A DNA stretch of 64,000 bases from an uncultured Verrucomicrobiota bacterium. GTDB taxonomy: Bacteria > Verrucomicrobiota > Verrucomicrobiia > Limisphaerales > SXQI01. The stretch covers positions 5,182-69,181 of the forward strand of contig CAYZKY010000009.1 in assembly GCA_964478815.1 (NCBI GenBank). Direction: 5' to 3'. How positions within the stretch are numbered: the stretch's first letter is position 1; the number at the start of each line of letters is the position of its first letter. The notes below the pieces were generated by a model. The model did no database searches. It was not told the DNA's origin and saw only the letters and a program-made list of their open reading frames with translations. This document shows, in pieces, positions 1-18,986 of the stretch. The position numbers and the translations under genes were made by a program.

Positions 1-140
1 ACCGCGACGACCGGGGCAATGGCCTGCTCGACTCGGTGACCTTCGGCAGCCAGACGGAGGATCGCTCCTACAGCCGCACCTCCGCCAACCCGAACGAATT
101 CGCCATCACGATCCCGACACCGAACCGCGCGAACCCGTGA
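1..140 (+). CDS. 3' end of a CDS cut by the window edge; the tail resembles the end of a lamin-tail-domain-type secreted protein
   Basis: Open frame from nt 3 to TGA 138-140. It translates ...RDDRGNGLLDSVTFGSQTEDRSYSRTSANPNEFAITIPTPNRANP*. The resemblance to LTD domain ends is from memory only. Confidence 0.3.
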   Translation, partial: RDDRGNGLLDSVTFGSQTEDRSYSRTSANPNEFAITIPTPNRANP

Positions 141-167
141 GCCTCCGGCGAAGCAGTCGCCGCAGAA

Positions 168-995: not shown

Positions 996-1279
996 CGAGC
1001 CGAACCGCGAAACTGCTTCAGGCGGCGCGGAGCCGCTTGAGGGGAAGGAAGCGGATTTCGATACGGGTGGCGAGAGCGGCGGCAATTCGCCGTAGCATCG
1101 CCATCGAGTGGCCTTCATGCCGCAGATTTCTGGGCTTGGACCATGCCCGAGACGTCGTTAGGCTTAGGGGGTGTTAACCAGATTGGGAAAGGCCGTATCC
1201 GGAGTCGGGCGGATGAAACTGGCACCATCATTGCGATGGTGCAGGCAGTGGCCGGTCCTGCAGCATTAGCATTGCCCGC

Positions 1280-1723
1280 ATGCGCCGGCTGGCTGGCTAT
1301 TTCGCGCCCGGTTTGTGGATGCTGGTGATCTTTCTGGTCTCCACCGATATCGGGTCTTCGGATAATACCTCGCGGATTATCGGGCCGATTTTGCGGTATT
1401 TCTTCCCGGATGTTTCCGACGCCACGATTTCCGCCGTGCAAACCGTGGTGCGGAAGGGAGGGCACCTGACGGAATATGGCATTTTGGCGGCGCTCTTCTG
1501 GTGGGCGCGGCGCTATCAGGTGGGCGGGCCTTGGAGGTGGTGCTGGCGGGAGGCGTGGTGGATTGTGCCCGCGTGCGCGCTGTATGCCGTGTCGGACGAA
1601 TTTCACCAGATGTTTGTCGGCTCCAGGCAGGCGAGTGTCGTCGATGTGGCGATCGACACGGTCGGAGCTTTTCTGGCGCTGGTGGCCATTTGGGCCATCG
1701 GCCGTTGGCGGCGGAAATGGTGA
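1280..1723 (+). CDS. VanZ-like family membrane protein
   Basis: 147 aa, 4 TM. Contains HLTEYGILAAL and SDEFHQMFVGSRQASVVDVAIDTVGA, the VanZ signature. Confidence 0.8.
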   Translation: MRRLAGYFAPGLWMLVIFLVSTDIGSSDNTSRIIGPILRYFFPDVSDATISAVQTVVRKGGHLTEYGILAALFWWARRYQVGGPWRWCWREAWWIVPACALYAVSDEFHQMFVGSRQASVVDVAIDTVGAFLALVAIWAIGRWRRKW

Positions 1724-1726
1724 GGC

Positions 1727-4144
1727 ATGAAGGCGAACCCGCTGGTCGGAGTCGCCCTTGCGTTTGCCGCCGGGATTGTCCTGGCCCGGTTCGCGACCGA
1801 GTTTCTCCTCGGCCTGCCGTTGCTCGCGGCGGGGTTGTTGATCGGCTCTCTCTTCCTGCGCGCACTGCGTCCGTCCGCGATCTGGGGGATCGTCCTGACC
1901 TGCGGCGCTTTGAATTATTGCGTGCGATGGATTGAGGTGCCTCCCGGAGATTTGCGTGCGCTTGGGCTGGCGCAGGAACAGCTCGTCACCATCCGGGGCA
2001 TGGTTCTGGAACGGCCCATCGTGAGAGAATTCCAATCCGGCGGACGCACCAACCGGACGTCCACCGCGCGGGTGCAGGTTGCTGCGATCGGCCGGCCCGA
2101 GTGGGAAACCACGCGCGGGGTGATTCTGGCGAGCACACGCGGCGACCTCCCCGAAACCGTTCAGGCGGGGCGCGAAGTGACGGTGGAAGGGGTGTTGCGC
2201 GTGCCGCCGGGCGCGCGCGCCGAAGGGCTGTTCGATTACGGCCGGTATCTGGCCCACGAGGGAATCTTTTATCAACTGCGCGTCGAGTCCGCCGAAGATT
2301 GGCAGGCCGTGGGAGCCGCGCCGTGCCCGCGCTGGCGGGACGCGTTCGCCGATTGGAGCCGGCGCACGCTGTCGCGCGGATTGCCGAATGACCAAAATCT
2401 GGCGCTACTGCTGGCGATGACATTGGGCTGGGCCGGCGCCCTGGAAGGGGAGGTGGCGGATCCCTTCCTGCGCACCGGGACGATGCATATTTTTGCGATC
2501 AGTGGCCTCCATGTGGCGTGCATCGCCCTCGCGCTGGCGAGCCTGACCCATGCCTTTGGCGTGCCGAGGACATGGACGGCGCTGGGGGTGCTGCCGCTCA
2601 TCTGGTTTTACACGGTGGCGACCGGCTGGCAGAGCTCGGGAGTCCGGGCGGCGATCATGGCGAGCATCGTGTTGCTGGCCTACCCGCTGCGGCGGCCGTA
2701 CGCGTTGCTGAACGCGACGGCGGCGGCTTCGGCGATTCTGATCTTCGAACCGGAGCAGGTCTTCCACGCGAGTTTTCAGCTTTCGTTCATTGTCGTGGCG
2801 AGCATGGCCTGGCTGTTGCCGAGCTGGAAGCGGCTCCGCCAAAAACTGTTCGCGCCCGATCCCTTTCTGCCGCGCGAGTTGCACGGCGGGTGGGCGCGAG
2901 CATGGCGGTGGACGGCGCGAAGGGGCGCCGATGGCTTCGCCGTTTCCCTCGCGGCGACTTTGGGCGCGCTGCCGCTGACACTCTGGTATTTCAACATCGT
3001 CACGCCGGTCGGGCTGGTGGCCAATCTCATCGCGGTGCCGCTGAGCAGCGTTTCGCTGACGGCGGGGCTGGCGAGCTTGTTGATCAGCCTGTTGCTGCCG
3101 CCCCTTGCGCCGATCTGCAACTGGGTGGCCTGGGCATTCATGGCGGCGACCGTGGCGGTGGTGCGCCGGCTCGCGGAATTCCGCTGGGGATATTTCTACG
3201 CGGAAGCGCCGGAGCTGATGGTCATCGGACTGTATTACGTCTGGCTGACGGCGGTGGGACTGCTGCTGGTGCGGCGCACGCCGGGGCGATGGTGGGCAAT
3301 GGCGAGTGCGACCGTGGCGCTGCTGGCGGCCTGGGGATTTCCAGCGACGAGGCCACAGGCTCAGGCAGTGACCGCGCTGCCGGGGGATGGCGGGGTAGTA
3401 TGGGTGGATACGCCTGGCGCAGCACACGACGTGTTGCTGGGTTGCTCGAATGAGGCGACCGGCCGATTTCTCGTCACGCGCTTTCTGCGCGCACAGGGGA
3501 GAGATACGGTGCCCAACATCGTGTTGAGCCACGGCGATGTCGACCAGGCGGGCGGATTTGGAGCGATTTGGGAGGAGTTCCAGCCCCGAAAAGTCTTCAC
3601 CGGCCCCGGGCGGGGGCGGTCGCCTACGTATCAGGCCGCGCTCGCCACGCTTCAAGCGAATCCGGCGCGATGGCGATCAGTGGGACGGGGCGAGGACATC
3701 GCGGGCTGGCAGGTGCTGCATCCCCGGCGCGATTCCCGCTATCCGCGAGCCGACGATAATGCGCTGGTGCTGCGAGGGGATATCGAAGGCTGGCGGGTCA
3801 TTCTGCTCTCCGAGCTGGGGATGCTGGGGCAACGCGAATTGGCGGAGTGGCCCGAGGATTTGAAGGCCGACGTGGTGATCGCCGGTTATCCCGAGCAGGA
3901 CGAACCGCTCCTGCCGGCGCTGCTCGAACGCATCGATCCGCCATTGATCGTTCTGTCCGAGAAGTCCGCCCCGGGGTTTGGCGTGCCCGAACGGCGTGTG
4001 GTCGAACGGCTGGGCGGGGCGAACCGCGCGATAGTGATGGTATCCCGGGAGCGAGCGGTCACCTTGCGCTTTCGCGACGAGACCTGCGAATTGAGCACCA
4101 TGGCGGGGCTGGCTCGCACGTTTCGAAAACCCACGCTTCGGTAA
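1727..4144 (+). CDS. comEC: ComEC/Rec2 family DNA internalisation protein
   Basis: 805 aa. The competence-domain motif GTMHIFAISGLHV sits in a polytopic core. The C-terminal MBL-like domain has degenerate metal motifs (SHGDVDQAGG, no HHGS). ATG lies 4 nt after the VanZ stop. Confidence 0.85.
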   Translation: MKANPLVGVALAFAAGIVLARFATEFLLGLPLLAAGLLIGSLFLRALRPSAIWGIVLTCGALNYCVRWIEVPPGDLRALGLAQEQLVTIRGMVLERPIVREFQSGGRTNRTSTARVQVAAIGRPEWETTRGVILASTRGDLPETVQAGREVTVEGVLRVPPGARAEGLFDYGRYLAHEGIFYQLRVESAEDWQAVGAAPCPRWRDAFADWSRRTLSRGLPNDQNLALLLAMTLGWAGALEGEVADPFLRTGTMHIFAISGLHVACIALALASLTHAFGVPRTWTALGVLPLIWFYTVATGWQSSGVRAAIMASIVLLAYPLRRPYALLNATAAASAILIFEPEQVFHASFQLSFIVVASMAWLLPSWKRLRQKLFAPDPFLPRELHGGWARAWRWTARRGADGFAVSLAATLGALPLTLWYFNIVTPVGLVANLIAVPLSSVSLTAGLASLLISLLLPPLAPICNWVAWAFMAATVAVVRRLAEFRWGYFYAEAPELMVIGLYYVWLTAVGLLLVRRTPGRWWAMASATVALLAAWGFPATRPQAQAVTALPGDGGVVWVDTPGAAHDVLLGCSNEATGRFLVTRFLRAQGRDTVPNIVLSHGDVDQAGGFGAIWEEFQPRKVFTGPGRGRSPTYQAALATLQANPARWRSVGRGEDIAGWQVLHPRRDSRYPRADDNALVLRGDIEGWRVILLSELGMLGQRELAEWPEDLKADVVIAGYPEQDEPLLPALLERIDPPLIVLSEKSAPGFGVPERRVVERLGGANRAIVMVSRERAVTLRFRDETCELSTMAGLARTFRKPTLR

Positions 4145-4274
4145 CGCCGGCAAGCTGCGAGTTCCGGATCGAACTGCACCGATCTGAATCGGCTCTCTCC
4201 CACGCCATCCGGCCGGCCTGGATGAAGATTTCGGATCGCGCCGGCATCGCAGAATCGCCGATGGAACCAGCGCC

Positions 4275-5705
4275 TCAAGAGCGGGGCGGGGGTTTCATTT
4301 TGAGGCCCTGGTGTTTCCAGAGTTTTTGCTTGAGCGACGGGAACAGTTCGAGGGCGTTGTCGCGGAGGATCTGCGTGCCGATGCGGAGAGCGTGGTCTTC
4401 GCGGAGTTCGGCGCGCTCGACTTTTTCGGCGAGCGCTTCGGCGAGGCAGCGGCGGGTGTATTCGGTGGCCGCGTAAATGCCTTCGGCGTGGTGGGCGTCG
4501 GCGCCCCAGAGGATGCGGTTGGAGCCCATGACTTCGAGCCATTCCTGATAGGCGCGCTTGCCCATGGTGTAGCTGATGGTGGGAAGCCAGACGGAATCGA
4601 TCCAAACGTTGCGGTGGCGCGTGGCGATGGCCCCGGTCTCGCCGATCCACGGGTAGCCGCCGTGGAAGAGGATGATTTTGGTCTTGGGGTGGGCGGCGAT
4701 GAGGTCGACGAGGAGCATGGGGTTGCTGCCCTGGATGCGGGCGTGGCCGGTGTGAATCTGGAAGGGGAGATCGAGCTTGGCGCAGAGCTCGACGATGCGC
4801 CACATGACGTAGTCCTGGAAGGCTTTGACATCTTCGGGGGTGGATTGGCCGCGGGGACGGCCCCAGGCTTTTTCGGCACGTTCCTTGGAGGCATTGGCGA
4901 AGTCGAGGGTGCGCTCGTAGGCGGTGGTGGTTTTGAGGCAGACGGCGCCGCGTGCTTTGCCGTGGGCCATGATGCGCTCGATCACGGCGATGTAGTCATC
5001 GAGGGCTTCGAGCTGCAGGTTGTGGGTGGCGGCGAAGTGGTAGGGGGAGTCGTTGGGATTGGAGAAGTCGGAGGGGTGGATGCCGCGAATGAAGGTGGTG
5101 ACATTGATGGTGGGGACGGCGAAGGGGTATTCCACATCGAAGCCAAGGCGGTTCCAGTAAGGATCCATGACGACGAGTTCGATATTGGCGCGTTCGGTGA
5201 GGACTTCGTAGATCCAGGCGGGGTCGCGGTAGTGGTCGAAGATGCGGTCGTTGAGGGCGCGGGCCTGGTCGTCGGTGATGGTTTCGAAGTCGATGCCGTA
5301 AAGATCCGTAAAGGCGGGCAGTTGGTAGCGGTAGAAGCTGGTGGCCCGGGCGTTGTCGAAATCGTGTTTCGCCCGCGGCCACCATTCGGCGAACTGGCCG
5401 GATTGGGGCCAGGGGGTGAGGGGGTTGAACCAGGTGTAGTAGCTGCTTTGCCAGAGGGAGTGGAGGGTCATGCCGCGGCCGCGGGGCGTTTCGACGCGGC
5501 CGGCGATGCGGTCGAACGGGGGAAGGTGATCGTGCGTATCGATGGCAGGAGTGGCATCGAGGTGGGCTTTGATTTTGCGGTAGGTGGCGGTTTGTTTGAC
5601 GTCGATGGATTGGGCGCTGGCGACGAGGGGGAGCGCGGCGGCGGGCGCGGGGCGCGAGGGAGCGAGCAGGGTGGCGGCGAGCAGGAGCAGGAAACGATGG
5701 GTCAT
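4275..5705 (-). CDS. secreted metal-dependent amidohydrolase (TIM-barrel hydrolase family)
   Basis: Start placed at internal ATG 5705 (MTHRFLLLLAATLLAPS..., a signal peptide). IDTHDHL metal-binding motif, HTGH and a later His/Asp. The longer ORF to 6035 is Pro/Ser-rich and looks non-coding. Confidence 0.75.
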   Translation of the reverse strand: MTHRFLLLLAATLLAPSRPAPAAALPLVASAQSIDVKQTATYRKIKAHLDATPAIDTHDHLPPFDRIAGRVETPRGRGMTLHSLWQSSYYTWFNPLTPWPQSGQFAEWWPRAKHDFDNARATSFYRYQLPAFTDLYGIDFETITDDQARALNDRIFDHYRDPAWIYEVLTERANIELVVMDPYWNRLGFDVEYPFAVPTINVTTFIRGIHPSDFSNPNDSPYHFAATHNLQLEALDDYIAVIERIMAHGKARGAVCLKTTTAYERTLDFANASKERAEKAWGRPRGQSTPEDVKAFQDYVMWRIVELCAKLDLPFQIHTGHARIQGSNPMLLVDLIAAHPKTKIILFHGGYPWIGETGAIATRHRNVWIDSVWLPTISYTMGKRAYQEWLEVMGSNRILWGADAHHAEGIYAATEYTRRCLAEALAEKVERAELREDHALRIGTQILRDNALELFPSLKQKLWKHQGLKMKPPPRS

Positions 5706-6218
5706 GGTGTCGGTGGAGAGGGTGGCCGAGCGGGGTGGGGATTTCGAGGCAAAAAGGGGCATTTGGCCGCAGGAAGTCGCAAGACGGGGCTTTTGAGGGG
5801 CGACAAAGGGCAAGGCACGGCGGGAAAGGGATTTCGGGATGCGGCCCCCCGTCCGTTTTGGTTTGGGCAGGCGAGAGGAGGGGCTGGAGTCGACATTTTG
5901 GGGCCACCCCCCCTGTTTTTTGTTGGTGAAGGCGGGGAGGCGGGCGGTGGATTCCCGGGGCGACGGCTGGTGGGACGACCGGAAGGGCAGGCTGGAGGTG
6001 TGGAATTTGTGGAATCTCTGGAATGGCGGGAGCAAGGCGCGAGAGAGGTTCGAGACCCGGGGGCGGATAGGGTTCTTCCGTGCGGGAGGAGGGAGCCGGG
6101 CCGCTCGGCGGAGCCGGCGGGATGGAAGGCAGACCGGATGGGTGTCGCGAGGGGTTTTTGAGACGATAAGGGCGGGGCATTTTGGGTGCAGGAAGTCCTA
6201 TTTACGCGGGTTTCGTGA

Positions 6219-6249
6219 GGGTGTTTGGGGTGGTTGGGGTGTTTGGGGG
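6219..6249 (+). other. canonical G-quadruplex-forming motif (GGG-TGTTT-GGGG-TGGTT-GGGG-TGTTT-GGGGG)
   Basis: Four G-runs of at least 3 nt with 5-nt loops, read directly. It lies in the G-rich spacer 5706-6529. Confidence 0.6.
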
Positions 6250-6574
6250 CCGGAACGGGCGCGGCGGGGCGCGGGGACGGAGGCACGCTCCGGACGGGAC
6301 GGCGCAAGGGTGCGAGGGAGTGCGGGGAGTGGGAACTCCCCGAGGCAAAGGGATAGAGGCAGGGCCATCCGGGGACGGGTCGGAACGGGAGGCTCGGCGG
6401 GAGGCCGGGACTGCTGTTCGGAGACGATCCGGATGACCACGAAACGTGCTTCGCAGTCATGGAAGGAATGTCGTGCAGGAGGGGAGGAGACGCAAGGGGG
6501 ATGACGGGTGAATTTGCGGGAAATGTAGAATGGATCGGTGCAGAGGGGGCTCGACCTGGTGGAGGGGATCGGGC

Positions 6575-7564
6575 ATGGTCGGGGAAATGGCGGGGCAGCC
6601 GGATCATATTTCTGCGGGGACGCAGGTAGTGTCATTGGTGGAGGTGCGGGGCACGAACAATTCGCTCGTGCATCCGCGGGGGGCGGTGGGGGTGGTGACG
6701 CGGACGCCGGCGGCGGAACGGGAGAAGTATCTGGTTCGATTTCCCGACGGTTTCGAGTGTTCGCTGGGGCGGGATCAACTGGAGGTGCTGAAGCATTTCA
6801 AGGATCGGCTTGGGAACGAGAGTCGGGCCAATCCGTTCGCGCCGCCTGCCGCCGACGGCTCGCTGGGGACAGCGAGCCCTACCTTCGATCTGGAGTCGTT
6901 CATCATTTATCGCTGCGTAGTCGGATCACGGGCGTACGGGCTGGAGAGCGATGAATCCGATACGGATCGGCGCGGGATTTATCTGGCCCCGGCCAAGTTG
7001 CAGTGGTCGCTGTTCGGCGCGCCGGAGCAATTCGAGGATAACGCGACGCAGAGTTGCTACTGGGAGTTGCAGAAGTTCCTGACGATGGCGCTGAAGGCGA
7101 ATCCGAACATTCTGGAGTGTCTCTATTCGCCGATGGTGGAGAAGGCCACGCCGCTCGGGAAGGAACTGTTGGCGATGCGGGACGTCTTCCTGAGCCAGAT
7201 GATTTTCCAGACTTTCAATGGCTACGCGATGTCGCAGTTCAAGAAGATCGAGCAGGACATCCGCAACCACGGGGAGGTGCGGTGGAAGCACGCGATGCAT
7301 TTGCTGCGGCTGTTGCTGACCGGGGCGGCGACGCTGCGGGAGGGGCGGGTGCCGGTGCGGGTCGAGGCGCAGCGGGAGCGATTGCTGGCGGTGAAGCACG
7401 GAGAGGTGCCGTGGGCCGTGGTGGATGCCTGGCGAAAGGAACTGCATCGTGACTTTGAGCGGGCCTTGGCGGAGACGAAACTGCCGGAGCGGCCGGATTA
7501 TGAGGCGGCGAACCGGTTCTTGATTCGGGCGCGGCGGGTGATGGCGGACGCTGTTCCTTTCTGA
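6575..7564 (+). CDS. DNA-polymerase-beta-superfamily nucleotidyltransferase (COG3541/pfam10127-like) with a small N-terminal SH3-like domain
   Basis: VVGSRAYGLESDESDTDRRGIY matches the GS...DxD NTase motif of this family. ATG 6575 is preceded by GGAGGGG (6561-6567) at 7-nt spacing. The upstream ATG 6530 has no RBS. Confidence 0.7.
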   Translation: MVGEMAGQPDHISAGTQVVSLVEVRGTNNSLVHPRGAVGVVTRTPAAEREKYLVRFPDGFECSLGRDQLEVLKHFKDRLGNESRANPFAPPAADGSLGTASPTFDLESFIIYRCVVGSRAYGLESDESDTDRRGIYLAPAKLQWSLFGAPEQFEDNATQSCYWELQKFLTMALKANPNILECLYSPMVEKATPLGKELLAMRDVFLSQMIFQTFNGYAMSQFKKIEQDIRNHGEVRWKHAMHLLRLLLTGAATLREGRVPVRVEAQRERLLAVKHGEVPWAVVDAWRKELHRDFERALAETKLPERPDYEAANRFLIRARRVMADAVPF

Positions 7565-7670
7565 ATCGCGCCACCGTAACCTCAGCCAAAGCTTTTGGAG
7601 CTTTCCCTCGAGGTCGTCAGTCGATATGCTGAGATGGATTTGAATGAAGTCCTGAACCGGAGTTGAGACG

Positions 7671-8402
7671 ATGTCTTGGCAAACTCTCAGCCTGCATTTC
7701 AAGCAGGAGTACGATGGCGCGTTCCGGTATCTCGACCGGTGCGGGGAATTCATGCTTGCAGCGGTGGACAAGTTGGATTTTCTTCCTGGCGAGATAAAGC
7801 CTTCCGGAGCCAAGCTCGAAATCCCAGAACGCGGCTTGACGGCCACAGTGGACACACTGGAACTCGTGATAGCTCAGGAGATGCCGGGTGCCGATCACGA
7901 GTCATTCTTAAAATCCTGTGAAGACCTTTCCGAATTGGTCAATGAACATTTCCAGCCTAAGCGACGTATCAGGAATGGGTTTGCCTGCAAATCCTACTGG
8001 CCTATCCCTAACGCGAACACGCTTCTTGCGGTCAGTCTCAGATTTGGGGGGGAAGTTCACAATGAACTCGGCAAACAATTAGGCATGGTGCCTGAACATA
8101 AACGCCTCGATTTTAACTTTACGTCCGGCAGTATGGATCTGCACGTTTTGCTCCAGCCTGTTACTTTCGACAAAGTGTCGGTTAGCCGCCAGAATCCCAA
8201 CTTGAAAGCGACTTCCGTTCAGAAAGAAAGGATAGAAAGGCGGAACAAATTTGCGGAGAAGCTGGATGTGCACCTAAGCCACGCGCTGATGCTTGAAGTC
8301 GATTTAATGGAAATCGACCCACCCGAGCATTCTTTGAGGCGGCACTTTACTGAATTGATGCGATACACTACCCTCCTTCGAAGCCAGTTTGACGCTTCAT
8401 GA
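7671..8402 (+). CDS. hypothetical protein (243 aa), first gene of the low-GC cassette
   Basis: GGAG lies 9 nt upstream of the ATG. The ORF is clean in a roughly 50% GC stretch where random ORFs should be short. No motif recognised; its size loosely recalls the uncharacterised TIGR04255 family, which is unverified. Confidence 0.6.
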   Translation: MSWQTLSLHFKQEYDGAFRYLDRCGEFMLAAVDKLDFLPGEIKPSGAKLEIPERGLTATVDTLELVIAQEMPGADHESFLKSCEDLSELVNEHFQPKRRIRNGFACKSYWPIPNANTLLAVSLRFGGEVHNELGKQLGMVPEHKRLDFNFTSGSMDLHVLLQPVTFDKVSVSRQNPNLKATSVQKERIERRNKFAEKLDVHLSHALMLEVDLMEIDPPEHSLRRHFTELMRYTTLLRSQFDAS

Positions 8403-8917
8403 GCACTTTAGCCCTCAGCTATCAGTTATCCTCTGCATCCACGGTTTCTGACCGCAGCAACGCCGTCTCGATTCTGGCGCATGAACCCCGTGTCGTTCAC
8501 TCTTACGGAGGTGCCTTTACCGATCCTGTATCTCTCAAGTTCCAACCAGCTCGAAAATGGTCTACCAAAGAAGACTCCCGTAAGCATCCTGCAGTACGGA
8601 CAAAGCGGCGGCTGAAAGGATTCCTAGTGGAGTTGCAGAAGGATGACGCGCGTGTCGCTTTCGTTGAGAATGGCCAGACCATCTTCTATGACCTGCCTGC
8701 AGATCAGATCCGCAAGGCCGGAATCAATGAGCGGAATCAGCCGTTCCAGATGGACGAAATCGAAACGGAAGATGAGCAGGGCTCGTTAATTGTCGGCTAT
8801 CGGTTTCTGGCGCTGGCCAAACCTTCGGATGCCTACATCGAGGCGTTGAATTTCGATGATGAGCGCATACGCAAACGAGACCTCATCCTCAAAGAATTTG
8901 GCAAAGCTCAGGCTTGA
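8399..8917 (+). CDS. hypothetical protein (172 aa) with a basic patch, second gene of the cassette
   Basis: ATGA start/stop overlap with the upstream gene (8399-8402). Basic stretch KHPAVRTKRRLKG followed by an acidic segment. No recognisable family. Confidence 0.55.
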   Translation: MSTLALSYQLSSASTVSDRSNAVSILAHEPRVVHSYGGAFTDPVSLKFQPARKWSTKEDSRKHPAVRTKRRLKGFLVELQKDDARVAFVENGQTIFYDLPADQIRKAGINERNQPFQMDEIETEDEQGSLIVGYRFLALAKPSDAYIEALNFDDERIRKRDLILKEFGKAQA

Positions 8918-9944
8918 TTTCTACGAGTCAGGAGTTGGCGACACCATTATCGTCACCTTCCCGTCAGGCGGCCTTGGCATCGTGGACGCGCACCCGTCGC
9001 GGCACGCCCATCGGCCTGGCATCCGCCAACTCGTCACTGGCCGCAAAGTGCATTTCATCTGTCTCACCCATCCTCACGCCGACCACGGGGTCGACCTGAT
9101 TCCGGTGCTCGAAGAGCATCCAGAGGTCGCAGAGTTTTGGTCAACAATCTTTGAGATCCCGGCCTTCATCTTTGGCGTCGAACAGACCGTGAATTTTCCC
9201 AGCCCCGTTCGGCAGTTTGCCGCGAAGATGAATCAGGATTATGGCGAGTTCCTCGTCGATCTTTTTGGCGCAGTCGTCGAGAGAAAGATTTCACGGCGCG
9301 TTCTCCACAGTGGAACACGCGAATCTGTCATCGATGGCGTCGAAGTGCATTGTCTGGGCCCAGATGAATCGGTTCAAAACTCATTTTTTGACGCCTACAT
9401 GGAGAAGTTATCTGATCCCAAGGTCCGCGTTCCCGATGCAAATTCCATTTCAGCCATCCTCGCCCTTAAATTCGGCCAGAGCTTCGTGCTATTGGGAGCG
9501 GACGCACTCAGCAAAAATTGGGAGAGCGCGGTGAAGCATCATCGCAAGCTCAATCTGCCCAAAGCGCGGGTGCTAAAAATCCCGCACCACGGGGCCAGAA
9601 ATTCATTCTCCCTGCAGCAGGGTGCCGCCACCTACCTCGACCTTTGCTCGCATGCGCCGAAGGCCAAGGCGGTGCTCTTCGCGGGCGACGCCAAACATCC
9701 CGACCGGGACGTGTATGCTCGCCTGTGCAGCCGCGCCGAGGTCTTTTGCCTGTCGAACGGCACTCGGCCTTCATCGGTAGAAGGCAATCCGCTGAAACTT
9801 CGAATTCCAGGTGCGAGAGCCGTTCAGCCATCTCTCGTCTGCAATCCAATCGTCAGCTTTGAACTGGACAAGGAAGGCAACGTGACCGTGCTGGCAGGCG
9901 CAGGGTGCGAGAATTGCGTGCATTCCCGCCACGATGACCACTGA
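8856..9944 (+). CDS. MBL-fold metallo-hydrolase, ComEC-type (predicted nuclease)
   Basis: LTHPHADHG (HxHxDH), LLGADA, and VLKIPHHGARNS, which matches the ComEC-type (V/L)K(V/I)xHHGS signature. C-terminal Cys/His cluster GCENCVHSRH. The only ATGs in frame (8856/8859) overlap the previous gene by about 60 nt. Confidence 0.75.
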   Translation: MMSAYANETSSSKNLAKLRLDFYESGVGDTIIVTFPSGGLGIVDAHPSRHAHRPGIRQLVTGRKVHFICLTHPHADHGVDLIPVLEEHPEVAEFWSTIFEIPAFIFGVEQTVNFPSPVRQFAAKMNQDYGEFLVDLFGAVVERKISRRVLHSGTRESVIDGVEVHCLGPDESVQNSFFDAYMEKLSDPKVRVPDANSISAILALKFGQSFVLLGADALSKNWESAVKHHRKLNLPKARVLKIPHHGARNSFSLQQGAATYLDLCSHAPKAKAVLFAGDAKHPDRDVYARLCSRAEVFCLSNGTRPSSVEGNPLKLRIPGARAVQPSLVCNPIVSFELDKEGNVTVLAGAGCENCVHSRHDDH

Positions 9945-10020
9945 CCCACGACTTGATCGCATTGTGGCGGCGCAGCCGTATCCGTTGTCGTTTGCGACGA
10001 TCAGTGGGGCGCCGGTCTGA
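9934..10020 (+). pseudogene. 28-codon remnant resembling the N-terminus of a second COG3541-type nucleotidyltransferase
   Basis: ATG 9934 to TGA 10018-10020 gives MTTDPRLDRIVAAQPYPLSFATISGAPV*. From memory, members of this NTase family begin ...PYPLLFATxSGxHLYGF. A shifted frame continues GLRGFAGDVEY..., a decayed GF..D.D-like string. Confidence 0.3.
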
Positions 10021-10067
10021 GGGGATTTGCGGGCGACGTCGAATATGGCGGAACAGCGCGAGGCAAA

Positions 10068-10242
10068 GGGGGAAACTGATGCAACCGCTTTCAGGGTTGG
10101 AGAGATTGGAAACGATAACCTGGGGTAGCCGTAGGGCGGCAACCCCAGGCTAAATGCTGGAATCCCGTTGGGATTCGGGAGTGGCGGAGGCCTCAGGGGA
10201 TGGCGCACGGCGGTCGGTGGCTCAGAGACCTCGAATTGGGGG
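10068..10242. repeat. copy A of a ~170-bp dispersed (REP/MITE-like) repeat with internal hairpins
   Basis: Aligns by eye at roughly 85% identity with 10585-10759. Contains hairpins cctgggg...ccccagg and aatccc-gtt-gggatt. Confidence 0.75.
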
Positions 10243-10261
10243 TGGCGACTCCTCACCCCAG

Positions 10262-10288
10262 CCCTCTCCTCGAACGAGGAGGAGAGGG
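10262..10288. repeat. perfect 10-bp stem-loop (ccctctcctc / gaggagaggg, 7-nt loop)
   Basis: Inverted repeat read directly. It is followed at 10300-10380 by a further palindromic unit (cccaggg...ccctggg). Confidence 0.6.
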
Positions 10289-10584
10289 AGAAGAATTATT
10301 GGGGTTCGGTAACCCAGGGTGGCGCTTCCGTTGGGCGCTTTGCCCTGGGCTAGTTTCTGTCGGGCCTTCAGCCCTCGCAGATGCGGCGTAAGAGGCAGTC
10401 GAGTCCGACCGGCGGGATTGAATTGGAATGAGGAGAACCAGTGAGCGTGGGGCGTGATGCGCCTAGTTTCGCAGGTTTGTTATTAAGTTGTCTCGATCAC
10501 TCTTTGCCAGGAGTCGAAGGTCTGTGGATGAAGTTCATCCTTGCCAGGCGACGGCGGTGGCGCGGGGGAGGCTTGGAATGCCAC

Positions 10585-10759
10585 GGGGAATCGATGCAAC
10601 CACTTTACAAGGGTTGGAGAAATTGGGGACGATAACCTGGGGTAACCGCAGGGCGGCAACCCGAGGCTAAATGCTGAAATCCCGTTGGGATTCGGGGGCG
10701 GCGACGGCATCAGGGTGTGGCGCACGGAGGTCGGTGGCTCAGAGACCTCGGAAGGGGGG
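10585..10759. repeat. copy B of the ~170-bp dispersed repeat
   Basis: Direct repeat of 10068-10242 in the same orientation, about 515 bp apart. Confidence 0.75.
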
Positions 10760-10892
10760 AGGCGAAGGGGACGGAGGAGGAGTCCGTCCGGGAAGACGGG
10801 CTGGGGGAAGAAGACGTTCGGGCGAGGCGCCCGAACGGGACAGGCGGGGGCGCCTGTGCCACCCAAGGGAGAGCGAAGTTCCGGGAAAAGGA

Positions 10893-10916
10893 CCCACCGT
10901 GGAGACGGTGGGTTTT
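10893..10916 (-). terminator. intrinsic-terminator-like hairpin downstream of prsR (bidirectional appearance)
   Basis: cccaccgt-ggag-acggtggg, an 8-bp perfect stem. It is followed by TTTT on the plus strand and by tccttttcc on the minus strand, and lies 26 nt beyond the prsR stop. Confidence 0.55.
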
Positions 10917-10941
10917 CATCCGAGCGAAGGGCGGGGACGAG

Positions 10942-12309
10942 TTAGTCCTCGGCTTCGGGTTTGCGGAAGCCGAAGCGTTCCATGAGTTCGTACATGGTGG
11001 GGCGGCTGATGCCGAGCTCGGCGGCGGCGGCGCTGACGTTGCCGTTGTGGCGGTGGAGGGAGCGGGTGAGGAAGTCTTTTTCGAGGGCTTCGCGGGCTTC
11101 CTTGAGGGTGGTGCCGGAGCGGGGGACTTCGAGGAGGGAGAGTTCGAGGTCGCGCTCGTTGACGCGGCTGCCTTCGGACATGATGACGGCGCGGCGGATG
11201 CGGTTTTCCATCTCGCGGATGTTGCCGGGCCAGTGGTATTGCTCCATGGCTTTGAGGGCTCCGGCGGTGAATTTCTTTTTTTCGGCGCCGGTTTCGGCGG
11301 CGAATTTGGTGAGGAAGCTCTGGGCGAGGATGGGGGTATCGCCCTGGCGCTCGCGGAGGGGGGGGAGCTTGAGCTTGACGACGGCGAGGCGGAAGAAGAG
11401 GTCTTCGCGGAATTTGCCTTCGGCCATGGCCCGGGAGAGGTCGGCATTGGTGGCGGCGACGAGGCGGACATCGACGGGGATGTCTTTGCGGCCGCCGACG
11501 CGCTGGATGACTTTTTCCTGGAGGAAGCGGAGGAACTTGACCTGGAGGGGGGGCGGGAGTTCGCCGATCTCATCGAGGAAGAGGGTGCCGCCGGAGGCGG
11601 TCTCGACCTGGCCGAGGCGGGTGGCGTGGGCGCCGGTGAAGGCTCCCTTTTCGTGGCCGAAGAGTTCGCTCTCGATGAGGTTTTCGGGGATGGCGCCGCA
11701 ATTGATGGCGACGAAGGGGCCGGGCTTGCGCTTGCTGGATTGGTGGATGGCCTGGGCGACGCGCTCCTTGCCGGTGCCGCTTTCGCCAAGGATGAGGACG
11801 GGGAAATCGGTGGCGGCGACTTTGCGGATGGTGGCGAACACCTCGAGCATGGCGTGGCTGGAGCCGAGCATGCCGTGGAACCCGCCGGTGTGGAGCTGGC
11901 GCTCGAGGTCGCGGTTTTCGCGTTCGAGGCTGACGAGATGGCAGGCGCGGCGGAGGATGATCTTGAGTTCCTCGGTATCGACGGGTTTGGCGAAGAAATC
12001 GTAGGCGCCTTCGCGGATGGCCTGGAGGGCGTTGGTCTTATCGGACTGGCCGCTGACGATGATGATCTTGGTCTCGGGCGAATCGGCGAGCATGGATTGG
12101 AGGGCGGCCATGCCTTCCGTGGTGCTGCCGGGCGAAGGGGGCAGGCCGAGATCGAGCAGCACGACATCGGGCTGGGCGGAGCGGAAGGCGGCGAGCCCGG
12201 ATTCGCGGTCGCCGGCGAGGGCGATCTCATAATCCTCAGTGAGGGCCCAGCGCATTTGCGACCGGATTTCTTCGTCGTCGTCGACGATTAAAATTTTCGA
12301 TTTATGCAT
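10942..12309 (-). CDS. prsR: sigma-54-dependent response regulator, PEP-CTERM-box type (PrsR)
   Basis: Receiver (ILIVDDD, DVVLLDLGLPP), AAA+ domain (GESGTGKE, GAFTGA) and C-terminal Fis-type HTH, adjacent to prsK/prsT. ATG 12309 is preferred over the TTG at 12321. Confidence 0.9.
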   Translation of the reverse strand: MHKSKILIVDDDEEIRSQMRWALTEDYEIALAGDRESGLAAFRSAQPDVVLLDLGLPPSPGSTTEGMAALQSMLADSPETKIIIVSGQSDKTNALQAIREGAYDFFAKPVDTEELKIILRRACHLVSLERENRDLERQLHTGGFHGMLGSSHAMLEVFATIRKVAATDFPVLILGESGTGKERVAQAIHQSSKRKPGPFVAINCGAIPENLIESELFGHEKGAFTGAHATRLGQVETASGGTLFLDEIGELPPPLQVKFLRFLQEKVIQRVGGRKDIPVDVRLVAATNADLSRAMAEGKFREDLFFRLAVVKLKLPPLRERQGDTPILAQSFLTKFAAETGAEKKKFTAGALKAMEQYHWPGNIREMENRIRRAVIMSEGSRVNERDLELSLLEVPRSGTTLKEAREALEKDFLTRSLHRHNGNVSAAAAELGISRPTMYELMERFGFRKPEAED

Positions 12310-12363
12310 GAACAACGGCAAACTCGCGGAGGCCCAGCGGGGGCGGGGTGCCGCTCACTTCGT

Positions 12364-14496
12364 TTAATCGGCAGAGCGTGGAGAAAGTGTAGAAGCAGGG
12401 GGCAGAAGGGGCAAGAGGACGCGGAAGGTGGTGCCCTGCCCCGGCTGGCTCTCGACTTCGATGCGGCCGCCGTGGGCTTCGACGATGGTTTTGCTCTGGA
12501 ACATGCCGATGCCGATGCCGCCTTTTTTGGTGGTTTGGAAGGGGCGAAAGAGGGAACGGGAGAGGAATTCCGGAGCCATGCCGCAACCATTGTCCTTTAC
12601 GGCGATAATGATCCAACTGCCCTGCTGGGAGGTCTCGACTTCGATGGAGCCGTTCTCGCGGAGCGCTTCGCGGGAATTGAGGAGGAGGTTGGTGACGACT
12701 TTGTCGATCTGGGAGGGGTCGAGCTTGACCTTGGGGATGGGGCCGAGGCGCATGACGAGGGGCGCGCCCTCGCCGAGGCAAGCGGCACTGGCGGTGATCA
12801 AGGCGTTCACATCCGTATCGCGAGGTTGAATCTGCAGATTCTGGCGGAAGAGGGAGAGGCGGGAGATGAGTTCCTGGATGTGGTGAACGCTCTTGCCGAT
12901 GGCTTTGAGGGCGTCCTTGCGGAACTCGGGATTGTCCCAGTGCTTGGGGAGGTTCTGGAGGGTGAGGTTGAGGGAGGAGGCGGTGTTCTTGAGATCGTGG
13001 ACGAAGAAGGCGGCGATGGTCTGGAAGGCCTCCATTTCGCGCGCCTGGAGGAGGCGGCGGGAGAGATGGAAATTGAGGAGGCCGGAGGCGATCTGGTCGC
13101 CGACGCATTTGAGGAGATCGAACTCTTCGAGACCGAAGGGGACGCCATCGACGCGGTGATTGAGGGTGATGAAACCGAGGAGCCGGCCGGCGGAAAAGAG
13201 CGGGACGCAGACGCGGCTGCCGGGGACGTCGTGAAAGTGCGACGGGTAACATTTGGTCAGGCAGGCGGCCCATTCTTCGGTGCGGGAATCGAGGAGGAAG
13301 GGGTTTGGTTCATTACGCAAGGCGGCGGCGACGGCGAGCACTTCGTCGCGCGAGAGGGGGCTGGTCTCTTCGGGCTTTTCGGTCAAGCCGGTGGAAGCGG
13401 CGAGGGCGAGGCGGGTTTGTTCTTCCTCGTAAAGCCAGACGGAGACGGAGAGGACGCGGAGGGTCTCGGAGATCCAGTTGGCGGAGAGCCGGCAGAGGGA
13501 GGGGGCATCGACGACGGTGGAAGTTTTCTCGGTGAACGAGAGCCAGGTGGCGCGGTAGTTGTAGATGGAGCGATGGAACTGGCGGCTGAGGTAGCGGCGA
13601 AGGCGATCCCGGGCGCGCTCGGAGAGCAGGAGCACCGCGAGGCCGGCGAGGGCGAGGAGGAGGAGGAACGCCTTGAGCGCAAAGGCTTCGGTGCCGCCCA
13701 GGGACCCGAGGCGCTTGGAGGTGGCTCCGACGACGATGAGGTAGGCCCCGACGCAGAAGCCGACGATGGAGTAATCGGAGGCGCGCTCGGCGGGGTAGAC
13801 CTCGACGAGGAAGGTATTGGGGCGAAGGAGGGCGCGAGCGAGGAAGCCGGTCGAGATCAACAACGCCACGGCGCGGATGATGTCGGACGAACTATCCGAC
13901 TGGCCGAAAAGGACGGACTGGCTGGAGGTATAGAGCCGGGCGGTGAAGATGAGCCCGACGCCGAGGATGATGAACTTGATGCGCCAGCGAGAGGTTCCGA
14001 CCGAGGCGCGGAAGGTGCGCTCGAGATTGACCAGAACCAGGGCCGATCCGGCGAGGATGCTAAGCTGGATCAGGAAGCCGGGGAGGCCGAGCTTGAACTC
14101 CCAATTGGCGATCCCCCGGGAGGTCTCGATGATGAGCGCATCTTGAAAGATGAAGGCAGAGGCGACCGGAATGGCCAGGCTGGCGGCGAGGACAACCGAC
14201 CAGCGTTGAAGAAAATGGCGATAATTCCCGCGGGAATAGACAATGCTGAAGTAGAGCCAGGAGAAGGGGATGAGAGCATGGGCGAGAAAGCACCAGCCTT
14301 TCCAGGAGGCGGCTTCGGCGGCGGTGTCGCTCGACGCAATGAAGGCGGCGAGGATCGTCTCGGCGGCGAGGAGAAGAAGCCCTCCGACGAAGGCTTTGTG
14401 GCCCGGGGCGCCCCATTCGCGGATGGCCGCGACGATCGCGAGGCCGGCGGCCAGACCCGCCGTGACGAGGAGGAGGATGAGCAGAGGGTCCATCAC
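12364..14496 (-). CDS. prsK: PEP-CTERM system sensor histidine kinase (PrsK)
   Basis: 710 aa with a long polytopic N-terminal domain. H-box FFVHDLKNT, N-box NLLLNSREA, DNGCGM and GGIGIGM. Gene order is prsT-prsK-prsR. Confidence 0.9.
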   Translation of the reverse strand: MMDPLLILLLVTAGLAAGLAIVAAIREWGAPGHKAFVGGLLLLAAETILAAFIASSDTAAEAASWKGWCFLAHALIPFSWLYFSIVYSRGNYRHFLQRWSVVLAASLAIPVASAFIFQDALIIETSRGIANWEFKLGLPGFLIQLSILAGSALVLVNLERTFRASVGTSRWRIKFIILGVGLIFTARLYTSSQSVLFGQSDSSSDIIRAVALLISTGFLARALLRPNTFLVEVYPAERASDYSIVGFCVGAYLIVVGATSKRLGSLGGTEAFALKAFLLLLALAGLAVLLLSERARDRLRRYLSRQFHRSIYNYRATWLSFTEKTSTVVDAPSLCRLSANWISETLRVLSVSVWLYEEEQTRLALAASTGLTEKPEETSPLSRDEVLAVAAALRNEPNPFLLDSRTEEWAACLTKCYPSHFHDVPGSRVCVPLFSAGRLLGFITLNHRVDGVPFGLEEFDLLKCVGDQIASGLLNFHLSRRLLQAREMEAFQTIAAFFVHDLKNTASSLNLTLQNLPKHWDNPEFRKDALKAIGKSVHHIQELISRLSLFRQNLQIQPRDTDVNALITASAACLGEGAPLVMRLGPIPKVKLDPSQIDKVVTNLLLNSREALRENGSIEVETSQQGSWIIIAVKDNGCGMAPEFLSRSLFRPFQTTKKGGIGIGMFQSKTIVEAHGGRIEVESQPGQGTTFRVLLPLLPPASTLSPRSAD

Positions 14497-14568
14497 GGAA
14501 GGGACGCGCGATTCAGGCCGCAGGGAAGCGGGCCGGCGAGTTCCGCGAAGGACGGAGGGGGAGGAAGG

Positions 14569-17500
14569 CTATTTGATTTCCTCAATGGCTTTGAGGGCTT
14601 CCGCCCGGAGGGGGGAATTGGCGTTCATGGCGAGAGCGCGGGTGAGAGAATCCTTGGCCTGCTTGTCCTTCAGCCGATGCTGGGCCAGGCCCAGGTAAAA
14701 GAGAGTTTCGGAATCGGTGGGGCGGGCCGAAACGGTCTGGGCGAGGAAGCGGGCCGCTTCGCGAAAATCGGACTTCCGGTAAGCGATCCGGCCCAAGGCT
14801 TTGTTCAGATCGGCGTCGTTGGAAAACTCCGAGCGCAGGGTGGTCGCCATTTGCCAGGCTTTGTTGTCGTCGAGCTGATGCGCAGCCAGGAGCAAGACGA
14901 GCCCGCGCTGCGCCTGGAGGTTCTGCGGGCGAGCGCGGACAAGGTTTTCGAGGAGCGCCCGGGCGCCGGGGACGTTGGCCTTGGCTTCCTCCAGGCGAGC
15001 GGAGGCCAGCACCGCAGGAGGAAATTCGGGTTCCGACTTCAAGAACTCGGCAGCGATTTGGCGGGCGGGCTCGGGATTGGCGCCGGAAGCTTCAAATTCG
15101 AGGAGGGCGAGGGCGCGCTGGGCCAGCGCGGTTTCGGGAGCGTCCGGTTTGCCCGCAGCGGCGGCCCGGAGTTGCTCCGCCGCCCGAGCGGTGTTGCCGA
15201 GACTGTACAAGCAAAGCCCGAGATAATAGGCAGGGGGGCCGGAGGAATCGGCCGACACCGCCTGCTGGAGGATGGGAGAGGCCCAGCGGTACTCCCCGGC
15301 CCGGTAGCCGACCCGCCCGAGCATGGGCGCGGCGGCGGCGCTGGGGGCCTGCTCCCACGACTGACGCGCGAGTTCCATGGCACGCGCCGAGTTGCCGAAG
15401 CGCTCGGAATAGAGGGCGGCGAGCGGGGCGAGGACCGAACCGGCGCGAGGATTGATGCGGAGAGCCTTCTCGTACAAATCGCGGGCCTGGTCGAATTGCT
15501 GCCGGGACTCCATGGACTGGGCAAGGCGAATATGAGCGAACAGGTCCTTGGGGTCGGCTTCGATGGCCTTGCGAATCAGCTCGACGGTCGAGGCCGGAGC
15601 ATTCGCGGACGTATCGGCGCTCAGGACGGCGAGAACGCGCGTGGCCTGTTCCTTGCCGGTGAAGTCATTGGTGGACGACACCGCGGACTGGAGCGCCGCG
15701 CGCGCGGCGGGTTCGGCCCCCATCATGTAATTGACCATGCCGAGGTGGTAGCGAACCTCGGGCATCTCGGACATGCCTTCGCTGGCCTGCCGGATGAGAT
15801 TCAGCGCGCGAACATAATCGCCTTGCTTGAAGAGAATCCACCCGTAGGTGTCCGCCGTGTGGGTGTCGAGCGGGCGAAGATCGTGCGCCTTCTGAGCAAG
15901 CGGGGCCGCGCGCTCGACTTCGCCAAGATGCTCGCTGAGGACATAGGCGAGGTTATTCAAGGCCGGGATGTTATCGGGCTTGAGCGCCAGGAGTTTTTCA
16001 TACGTCTCGCGCGCGCCCCGGTAATCTTTCGTGATTTCGAGCAGCATGCCGAGCTGAAGCAAACTGGCCAGATCCTTGGGCACTTTCTGGACGATCTCGC
16101 GATACTTGGCGATGGCCGATTCCAGTTGCTTGGTGCGGGAGTAGAAATCGGCGAGGGACTTTTGCGCGAGGTAAAAGTCGGGAGCGAGCTGGATCGCCTT
16201 TTGGAGGGCGGCTTCGGCTTCAGCGGGTTTGTTGTGCGCAAAGAAAACCTTGGCTTGCAGCGTCAGCGGCAAGGGGTGCTCCGGGTGCTTGTCGACGTAG
16301 ACCTGCACGCGGGAGAGGGCGGCATCGAAGCGCCGGGCGGCGATATCGATTTCGATCAAGTCGTCCAGCGGCTGCAAGAGCGCGGGATTAATCGCGAGGG
16401 CGGCTTCGAAGGCTTTGTAGGCGTCGTCGAACTTGCGCTGGAGGCGGTAAGTGACTCCCATTTCCTGATGAGGCCGCGGTTCCTTGGGCGTGAGTTTGGC
16501 GATGGCCTGGTAAATCGCGATGGCGTCGTCGTAGGTTCCGCGAGAACGATGCGCGGCGGCCAAAAGGTATTGGGCCTGGATGAGCCTGGGGTACTGCGCC
16601 ACGACCCGGGTGAGGGTAGGGATGGCGGCCGCGGCTTCATTCCGGCGCAGGAGGAGTTCGCTGCGGACGAGGACCGCCTCGACGAAGTTGGTGTTCAGCG
16701 TGAGCGCGCGATCCAGCTCGGCCAAGGCCTGGGTCGTGTCGTTCTGGGCGAGCCGGACAAGGGCGGTCTGATAAGGGACTTGCGGATCGTTGGCGTAGGC
16801 ACGCTTGATCGTTTCGAGATCCGCGATGGCGCCGGCATGATTGGCCTGCAAGAGACGGAGGCGGGACCGATTCAAGAGGCTGGCGCGGTGGTTGGGATCC
16901 ACCTTGAGCGCGCGTTCGAGCATGATGGAACATTGATTCGTATCGCGCTCCTGCAGGGCCATCTCCGCCAGAGTATTCATGGCGACGATAAAATCCGGCA
17001 CTTTCTCGATGGCATCTTCGAGGAGCTTTTTGGCGCCGGCGGCGTCGCCCTGACGGGCCCGGAATTCGGCGTAACGCAAACGTTCGAGGGATTTGGGCGC
17101 GGCGTGATCCGAGGCGAGCTTGAGGGAAGCTTCGGCTTCGTTGGTCCGGCCAAGCTGCCAGTAGAGATTGCCCAGGCCGAGGGCGGCGGTGGAATTGGTC
17201 GGACTTAACTTGAGAGATTGTTGGTAGGCCGCCTCGGCTTCGCGGGCTTTGCCGGTCCGCTCATAGAGACGGGCGAGGGCCTGAGGCACCGCCGCGTTGG
17301 CCGGTTGCATCTGGGCCAACGCCTGGAATCGCTGATGCAGTTGGACGATCTGCTCCTGCGAATTGGCGAAATTGGCCAGCATCTGGAGCGCCTCGGGATG
17401 GCCGGGAGACCGGCTGAGGACGAACTCCACTTCGGAAACCGCGTTCGAGAGCTGACCTGCCACCGCCATCAGACTGCCCAGCTTAAGGCGGACGTTGATA

Positions 17501-17805: not shown

Positions 17806-17817
17806 GATGGGGAACCT

Positions 17818-18789: not shown

Positions 18790-18986
18790 AGGAACACGGG
18801 TTGTAAAGGAAGGGAGAGTTGCCGGATAGCGACACCGGACTCCGGGAACTATAGGGCCGGGCCTGCCGGGAGAGCCCGGTCAAGGCTCGGGGCGCAGACG
18901 CCTTTGGCTCGTCCAAGCCGCCGCAAAATCGACGGCGGGGCCGAAGACACTCATCACGCCGCCGAAACGAGGCACCCTGCAACGGA

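Follow-up and report, generated by a model that had tools for sequence, protein, structure and literature searches.

A three-gene cassette with a ComEC-type metallo-β-lactamase protein at a junction of RlaP genes in Verrucomicrobiota: a candidate mobile defence system

What do three short, overlapping genes do that stand between two RNA-repair-type nucleotidyltransferase genes in an uncultured Verrucomicrobiota bacterium? The genes, here called g1, g2 and g3 and together the trio, lie in a 64,000-nt stretch of contig CAYZKY010000009.1 (assembly GCA_964478815.1), the window to which all coordinates refer unless a locus is named. A first-pass annotation made from the letters of the sequence had described them as a horizontally acquired, undescribed defence module ending in a ComEC-type metallo-β-lactamase (MBL) nuclease. 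Our analysis supports this reading in every part that could be put to the test, and we consider it rather probable that the trio is an undescribed mobile anti-phage or anti-plasmid defence system. Its genes are the following.

7671-8402, plus strand: g1, 243 aa, from the list of open reading frames (ORFs)
8399-8917, plus strand: g2, 172 aa, with an ATGA overlap with g1 at 8399-8402
8856-9944, plus strand: g3, 362 aa, overlapping g2 by 62 nt

The three coupled ORFs and both overlaps lie where the first-pass annotation had placed them, and its hand counts of 51, 28 and 31 G+C per 60 nt were exact on recount. The composition of the trio, which it had called atypical, also stands out against the whole window: at a GC content of 0.539 versus a mean of 0.603 (standard deviation 0.027 for 2.3-kb windows) the trio is the lowest-GC 2.3-kb block of the 64 kb, it belongs to the lowest 0.5% of sliding windows, and all sliding windows with a GC content below 0.56 overlap it. 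GC at third codon positions (GC3) amounts to 0.57-0.65 in the trio genes, compared with 0.79-0.85 in the ComEC, RlaP, NtrC and histidine kinase genes; the upstream RlaP1 gene has a GC of 0.63 and a GC3 of 0.80. No tRNA was found within 1-20000 of the window, as had been stated for the flanks, while promoter and terminator scans at the trio stayed at chance level, with no promoter above chance in 7547-7670.

An argument for a functional unit comes from other genomes. Word-indexed searches returned 54 g1, 70 g2 and more than 211 g3 homologues, almost all from Verrucomicrobiota metagenome bins and all unnamed. When one genome per species was scanned with the g3 profile, 80 loci were returned, of which 20 have a g3 that is at least 35% identical; they come from Verrucomicrobiota, Victivallales and a single bin with the label Gracilibacteria. 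Every one of these 20 has g1 and g2 immediately before g3, arranged and overlapping as in the window, which bears out the predicted linkage of the three genes. Purifying selection acts on all of them, with pairwise ratios of nonsynonymous to synonymous substitution (dN/dS) of 0.08-0.09 for g1, 0.13-0.20 for g2 and 0.12-0.16 for g3, next to 0.11 for the flanking RlaP. A solitary truncated g1 homologue (residues 1-181) at 8001-8840 of locus L007, accompanied by neither g2 nor g3, looks like a decayed copy of the cassette.

The unit is also mobile. Locus L012, whose trio is 74% identical, matches the window only over 7653-9910, and its flanks (SMC, tRNA synthetase) are unrelated; the trios of L008 and L012 are separated by a dS of only 0.3-0.4, although the former lies between RlaP genes and the latter does not. 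Its composition, the unrelated flanks and this discordance between L008 and L012 show the trio to be the transferred unit, in agreement with the horizontal acquisition proposed earlier. On one contig that IMG/VR predicts to be viral (IMGVR_UViG_3300005259_000069; L096 4359-8831), a divergent whole trio comes immediately after a terminase-like ORF of 773 aa. No att-like, direct or terminal repeats were found flanking the trio, and tblastn of the Mesorhizobium homologues of g3 and g1 found none in the PLSDB plasmids.

The best characterised member of the trio by sequence is g3. Across 47 homologues its metal ligands D44, H72, H74, D76, H77, D216, H244 and H245 are invariant, with H72, H74, D76 and H77 belonging to the HPHADH motif, which had been recognised as an intact HxHxDH, and H244 and H245 to PHHG; by these metal-binding motifs g3 is a member of the MBL-fold metallo-hydrolase superfamily. 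In the C-terminal extension of the same homologues C298 and C329 are invariant, C351 is nearly so and the second Cys of a CxxC is usual, so that of the 'Cys/His knot' noted at this end the cysteines stood up to comparison but the histidines did not. The final codons GAT GAC CAC TGA form the junction with the start of the truncated RlaP2 gene; they do not count among the conserved portions of g3.

Searched against the PDB by hmmsearch, the g3 profile from these homologues matched the C-terminal MBL domain of ComEC (9ic4, E 8.9e-6; 30bt, E 4.3e-4) and no other structure family. Both matches are weak but specific, each covering the HxHxDH segment as well as the DxNxxS...PHHG segment, and this profile similarity over two segments places g3 with the ComEC-type MBL nuclease domains. 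Among the PADLOC models PDC-M48B (1e-7), LmuA (the MBL-type partner, 8e-7) and RTasMBL (8e-5) were matched weakly by g3 and defence MBL models with values up to 8e-13 by more distant members of its superfamily; both sets of matches agree with the ComEC-type assignment of the first-pass annotation. Lactamase_B and Lactamase_B_2 of Pfam remained under the cut-off (E ~0.01), and matches to RNase Z were at noise level (E 0.03-0.14). Compared with ComEC/Rec2, its best relative of solved structure, g3 shares the alignable HxHxDH, DxNxxS...GD and PHHG motifs but lacks the membrane competence domain and the OB/DUF4131 N-terminal domain, and it has ~40 extra residues between motif II and DxN in addition to the Cys-rich extension. 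It was therefore rejected as a ComEC/Rec2 protein: TIGR00361 scores 17.2 bits against a cut-off of 190, and only the MBL domain aligns. On sequence grounds g3 is thus a ComEC/HamM-type MBL hydrolase whose motifs are intact and whose C-terminal extension is rich in Cys, and we propose it as a DNase effector, the predicted activity being that of its relatives.

The two partner genes are less telling. Neither g1 nor g2 gave a match in Pfam (2025), NCBIfam (June 2026), PADLOC-DB 2.0 or PHROGs, so the first-pass annotation, which could name no motif in them, is joined by four databases without any metabolic, competence or other family. Structure prediction and Foldseek, recommended as a check at that stage, yielded confident models and only weak fold matches, and sequence and profile comparison of both proteins with the PDB reached noise at best (All3327, E 1.1; bL35, E 0.58). 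In the AlphaFold2 (AF2) model of g2, in which pLDDT exceeds 90 over residues 70-140, residues 67-138 are predicted to form a five-strand OB-like barrel of the order b1-b3, helix, b4-b5, in which the helix separates strand 3 from strand 4. A C-terminal helix comes after the barrel, and before it lies a variable N-terminal tail (1-65) that is predicted to be disordered. The protein carries a conserved basic RRLKGF patch and an invariant NQPFQMDE motif. Its Foldseek matches were the LysRS anticodon-binding OB domain, the cold-shock domain, ModE and CST, all weak (E ~3e-3) and with a template modelling (TM) score of ~0.3 over the whole chain. From the predicted fold we propose g2 as a nucleic-acid-binding adaptor or regulator of g3. 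A 96-aa product on a 72,408-bp contig of the source collection corresponds to 56% of g2, at the C-terminal end, but relatives do retain the long form coupled through ATGA.

For g1, which has many invariant polar residues, AF2 gave two alpha+beta repeats (pLDDT 88.7, pTM 0.85). The family to which it belongs is a rare one and accounts for 190 of 1.84 billion cluster representatives. Foldseek against the PDB and BFVD returned RepD (E 9e-4), TBP and AdoMetDC at TM ~0.3 as well as one unnamed viral protein at TM 0.55-0.64; as the former are low-TM matches only, g1 was not taken for a homologue of TBP or Rep. A thiol protease, suggested by an invariant C24 at a helix start, was likewise discarded since C24 is not conserved in the homologues from Alphaproteobacteria and acidobacteria. 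The uncharacterised, sporadic TIGR04255 family resembles g1 in size (~250 aa), and UniRef names a remote g1 homologue of Mesorhizobium neociceri (WP_181060710.1) a 'TIGR04255 family protein'. The model itself misses g1, and the best of 10 remote relatives scores 10 bits (E 0.55) where the cut-off is 30, so that membership was rejected; our literature search on TIGR04255 found no papers. A strand of the form R-x-G-(I/L)-R-(F/Y) is common to g1-type proteins and is presumably a TIGR04255 feature as well. We thus describe g1 as a family without annotation that is remotely TIGR04255-like, and propose it as a sensor or regulator.

More distant relatives of g3, at 21-30% identity, are found in Planctomycetota, Terriglobia, Alphaproteobacteria and Myxococcota, and most of them follow two co-directional ORFs of ~230-250 aa and ~160-220 aa; the alphaproteobacterial carriers include the isolates Mesorhizobium neociceri and Lichenibacterium minor. 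By profile comparison, the first gene of the alphaproteobacterial and acidobacterial loci is a g1 homologue through an intermediate profile of remote g1 relatives, which it matches in hhalign with 96.8% probability (E 3e-10, 215 columns) and which in turn matches the g1 profile A1 with a probability of 100%. The planctomycete first gene encodes a helical protein unrelated to g1, and profile comparison detected no homology to g1 for the planctomycete and myxobacterial first genes. In Myxococcota a four-gene variant with a distant g3-type MBL was observed (L056, L060, L065, L076, L079, L080, L086-L088), in the order ~690-aa protein, ParA/MinD-like ATPase (PF01656, E 9e-10), ~160-aa protein and MBL. 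The middle genes of the different clades are linked by profile matches that are consistent and co-linear but below threshold (probability 40-58%, E 1e-4 to 3e-4; reversed controls at most 0.5%). From this cross-clade comparison, an OB-like protein and an MBL appear to be the conserved core to which an exchangeable first gene is added. A second MBL ORF, weakly related to g3 (E 2e-6 to its profile), lies at 4866-6068 of L021, 4 kb upstream of the trio of that locus and close to a type III restriction enzyme.

Within the window, the cassette occupies precisely the point at which two RlaP nucleotidyltransferase genes meet, with the following features at its borders.

6530-7564, plus strand: RlaP1, a PF10127 RNA-repair-type nucleotidyltransferase (Pfam E 2.6e-45)
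7547-7670, plus strand: junction on the left side and leader of the inserted block, set against the empty sites L110, L111, L123, L144 and L146
9934-10020, plus strand: RlaP2 remnant, the right flank, 28 codons (MTTDPRLDRIVAAQPYPLSFATISGAPV and stop), from tblastn and the reading of the junction

The gene ending at 7564, which the first-pass annotation had correctly called a nucleotidyltransferase, is RlaP1, the conserved left flank that lies outside the cassette. RlaP2 follows the trio in L008-L011. In the window, tblastn with the RlaP2 of L008 gave 53% identity over 57 aa (E 2e-10), with similarity reaching 10059; the ATG at 9934 lies inside the last g3 codons, only the first 28 codons are kept, and the remainder is deleted, with repeat-containing non-coding DNA in its place. 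Homology of RlaP1 to the loci with an empty site stops after ...GTGATGGCG (...ATGGCG, ~7546) and sets in again at 9934 with ATGACC(A/T)..., the beginning of RlaP2, so the junction reads alike in empty and filled sites. Because these junction sequences agree, the inserted block can be set at ~7547-9930, essentially the low-GC interval delimited in the first reading of the window; the last RlaP1 codons and a 106-nt spacer are specific to the window locus.

To view the site beyond the window, the best 80 (75-83% identical) of more than 535 RlaP1 relatives confirmed in metagenome contigs were fetched and numbered within L097-L176; 38 of them hold both RlaP genes. The site is empty in 8 of these 38, with the two genes overlapping directly, and the others contain 0.3-6 kb of mostly co-directional cargo from at least 20 unrelated protein families. 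The trio itself occurs in none of the 38. Annotated cargo comprises the following.

L147: RT_UG5-nitrilase DRT (PADLOC E 1e-277)
L133 class, four loci of this size class: TIR protein (PDC-S66 7e-56, ThsB 3e-33)
L128: type IIG restriction-modification enzyme (1e-23)
L167: AriAB/GajA/OLD-like ATPase (1e-26)
L115: HEAT-ARM_XIII (9e-18)
One locus: DruA (Pfam 7.6e-45)
One locus: WD40 protein (Pfam)
One locus: RNA ligase (Pfam)
Two loci: Pnkp/Hen1 (Pfam)

Many unannotated proteins are carried as well, for example of 208, 326, 373, 446, 789 and 1644 aa. The RlaP1|RlaP2 junction is thus a hypervariable cargo slot and defence hotspot in related Verrucomicrobiota. Defence hotspots bounded by conserved genes are known, for example, from P2/P4 satellites and from core-genome defence islands. 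As in those, the space between two conserved flanks is either unoccupied or taken by one of many unrelated defence systems, but here the flanks are overlapping RlaP genes, which belong to an RNA-repair locus of uncultured Verrucomicrobiota. As no flanking direct repeats were found, entry is most simply explained by recombination via the conserved flanks, and the cassette probably arrived by such an exchange. The genes further outside the RlaP pairs show no synteny with the window.

Motif reading placed a CCA-adding/poly(A)-polymerase-HD-like gene near the RlaP pair in 7 of 18 loci (e.g. L110, 461 aa, 39 nt after RlaP2) and an RtcB-like gene in 4 of 36 (e.g. L139, 512 aa, 1.6 kb before RlaP1). 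The gene content around the slot suggests that the hotspot lies inside a tRNA/RNA-repair operon. Downstream of the RlaP2 remnant, a direct repeat of ~180 nt is present in two copies, 86-88% identical, at 10070-10248 and 10585-10765, each holding a 16-nt hairpin (10116-10131 with 10137-10152); it was not found elsewhere in the window or the fetched loci and has no match in Rfam. Between the two copies, a palindromic element of ~68 nt at 10308-10375 matches the Acido-Lenti-1 RNA below threshold (29.4 bits, gathering score 37) and recurs in either orientation beside RlaP loci (L008 5552-5619, L124 with three copies, L151 and L175); it may be a repeat resembling repetitive extragenic palindromes (REP) or miniature inverted-repeat transposable elements (MITE).

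Away from the RlaP genes, defence or mobile-element genes were found within 8 kb in roughly half of ~21 independent trio contexts, among them the following.

L015 and L094: integrase, excisionase, trio, ASCH, type I restriction-modification
L093: MmeI-type restriction-modification
L023: Dsr1-like gene upstream, BrxC and PglZ downstream
L017: BrxC
L021: type III restriction enzyme
L004: relaxase, primase, coupling protein and ArdC of a conjugative element
L095: D5 primase, P63C
L006: NERD

A defence-like setting of the trio therefore exists twice over, in a hotspot with DRT, TIR, type IIG, OLD-like ATPase and DruA cargo, and in loci where the trio adjoins type I, type III and MmeI restriction-modification, BREX, integrases or conjugation genes. 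A conserved cassette, a patchy distribution, mobility and defence neighbours or hotspots are the features by which defence systems are defined through genomic association, and the trio shows all of them.

Three papers of 2025 showed by experiment that defence MBLs of this class are DNase zymogens, which an associated protease activates by cleaving them twice (PMC12799240, PMC12642450, 10.1101/2025.09.03.673762). In such modules, cleavage takes away two inhibitory loops that cover the active site. With these protease-MBL systems, namely HamM of Hachiman-MBL, the MBL partners of Avs1/2/4, Lamassu LmuA and DRT, PDC-M48B and RTasMBL, the trio shares a stand-alone MBL of ~350 aa that is kin to the ComEC nuclease domain and forms the terminal effector of a multi-gene cassette, and their PADLOC models are matched by g3 and its distant relatives with E-values from 1e-7 to 8e-13. 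It differs from them in having no trypsin-, caspase- or subtilisin-like protease, no helicase and no STAND or SMC sensor; the partners are instead an unannotated 243-aa protein and an OB-fold protein, and scores stay far below family level. The adjacent protease gene, usually fused to a sensor, that marks these systems is missing from the trio, no protease domain is detectable in g1 or g2 (Pfam, NCBIfam, PADLOC), and none of the three protease types was found among the neighbours in 10 annotated trio contexts. The double proteolytic cleavage described for the known systems (PMC12799240, PMC12642450) cannot apply here. Membership in PDC-M48 was rejected for a low score and missing partners. The 6A-MBL system (NF058524) also employs an MBL-fold enzyme and is weakly matched by g3 over PHHG (E 8.5e-4); it is described with ubiquitin-related elements (PMC13276650), which are absent from the trio, and with 18.5 bits against a cut-off of 220 this assignment was dismissed, too. 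No model of the four databases covers g1 or g2, in line with the first-pass annotation, which could match the trio to no named system, and our literature searches found no papers describing it or the RlaP hotspot. The effector class is known; the set of partners and the absence of a protease are new.

Several points weigh against a defence function. It is deduced by association, from position and neighbours, and about half of the trio loci lie among housekeeping genes, while RNA-repair genes also occupy the hotspot, so that the slot position alone is no proof of defence. The scores of g3 are far below the family cut-offs everywhere, with 28.8 bits for PDC-M48B as an example, and its substrate may be DNA or RNA. 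The fold of g1 has no informative match (TM ~0.3), the profile matches that link the g2 domains of different phyla stay below threshold (40-58%), and tblastn of the window g3 found no homologue in the PLSDB plasmids and INPHARED phages.

Of the other explanations, a toxin-antitoxin or addiction module survives best, and we regard it as unlikely. Here g3 would be a nuclease toxin and g2, perhaps together with g1, the antitoxin, and the cassette would stabilise itself or its mobile element instead of sensing phages; small, translationally coupled genes, a cassette that moves on its own and often lies beside other toxin-antitoxin and mobile-element genes, and a disordered g2 tail suited to a labile antitoxin all fit this picture. 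The strict conservation of three genes does not, and the invariant polar residues of g1 would be needless for an antitoxin. This explanation partly merges with the defence reading, since many toxin-antitoxin systems are abortive-infection defences.

The site of insertion raises another question, namely whether the trio serves RNA processing or repair, with g3 as an RNase and g2 as an S1/cold-shock-like RNA binder working with the flanking RlaP enzymes. Damaged RNA is what RlaP acts on (PMC12776372), and the cassette has been inserted between two genes of this kind; elsewhere the slot is occupied by Pnkp/Hen1 and an RNA ligase, and some RlaP pairs have neighbours that, by their motifs, are RtcB-like and CCA-adding-like. 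Many MBL enzymes are RNases, and some g3 homologues bear the label 'ribonuclease BN' from the Joint Genome Institute (JGI). We consider an accessory role of this kind improbable, somewhat more so than an addiction module: adjacency to RlaP is confined to the window and the L008-L011 lineage, the other trio loci being without RlaP, and by sequence g3 is closest to ComEC and the DNases of the HamM type, with RNase Z at noise level.

A replication or mobility module of a small selfish element, composed of g1 as Rep-like initiator, g2 as SSB-like protein and g3 as nuclease, seems very unlikely to us. Among PDB folds g1 comes closest to RepD, a rolling-circle initiator (E 9e-4), g2 is OB-like and the cassette is mobile, but the TM score to RepD is only ~0.3, terminal or flanking repeats are lacking, the plasmid and phage collections just mentioned hold no homologue by tblastn, and unrelated cargo uses the same gene junction, a sign that exchange proceeds through the flanks. 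Finally, an accessory to competence or DNA uptake tied to the host ComEC gene, for which the short distance and the likeness of g3 to ComEC nuclease domains would speak, is effectively refuted by the lack of conserved linkage, as no competence gene is among the listed families near other trio loci (two bulk scans covering the top 25 families only), composition indicates a separate origin, and g3 has no similarity to the C-terminal domain of the ComEC in the window, which also excludes a duplicate of that domain.

1727-4144: host ComEC gene, 805 aa, 3.5 kb upstream of the trio

The upstream ComEC gene is thus coincidental. Its MBL motif is degenerate, reading LSHGDVDQAGG instead of HxHxDH, and its nuclease domain may, from this reading, be inactive.

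Returning to the trio as a defence system, a working scheme can be outlined. In it, g3 would be a metal-dependent (Zn/Mn) MBL nuclease of the ComEC/HamM lineage that acts as the effector and degrades DNA. The OB-fold protein g2, which the overlapping reading frames would supply in a fixed proportion to g3, would bind nucleic acid, g3 or both, and would either keep the nuclease inactive or steer it to its substrate. As sensor or regulator we would place g1, the gene that is exchanged for unrelated proteins in the planctomycete and myxobacterial versions of the g2-g3 pair. Because no protease is encoded, activation would be non-proteolytic and might proceed by release of a partner or by binding of a ligand or nucleic acid. 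Taken together, we give an even chance to a combined proposal in which the trio is a new type of defence whose MBL DNase of the ComEC/HamM lineage is licensed, without proteolysis, by an OB-fold partner and a TIGR04255-like sensor, and in which the RlaP overlap junction in RNA-repair loci of soil Verrucomicrobiota is an unrecognised defence hotspot whose unannotated cargo represents further new systems.

If confirmed, the trio would reveal a protease-independent control of ComEC-like MBL DNases, which in immunity are so far known only as protease-activated zymogens, and would give two protein families without annotation their first functional context. The RlaP1|RlaP2 junction would offer a ready-made site of discovery in a poorly studied phylum, and since defence cargo is physically linked there to RNA-repair operons, one may ask whether the two functions are coordinated in these bacteria.

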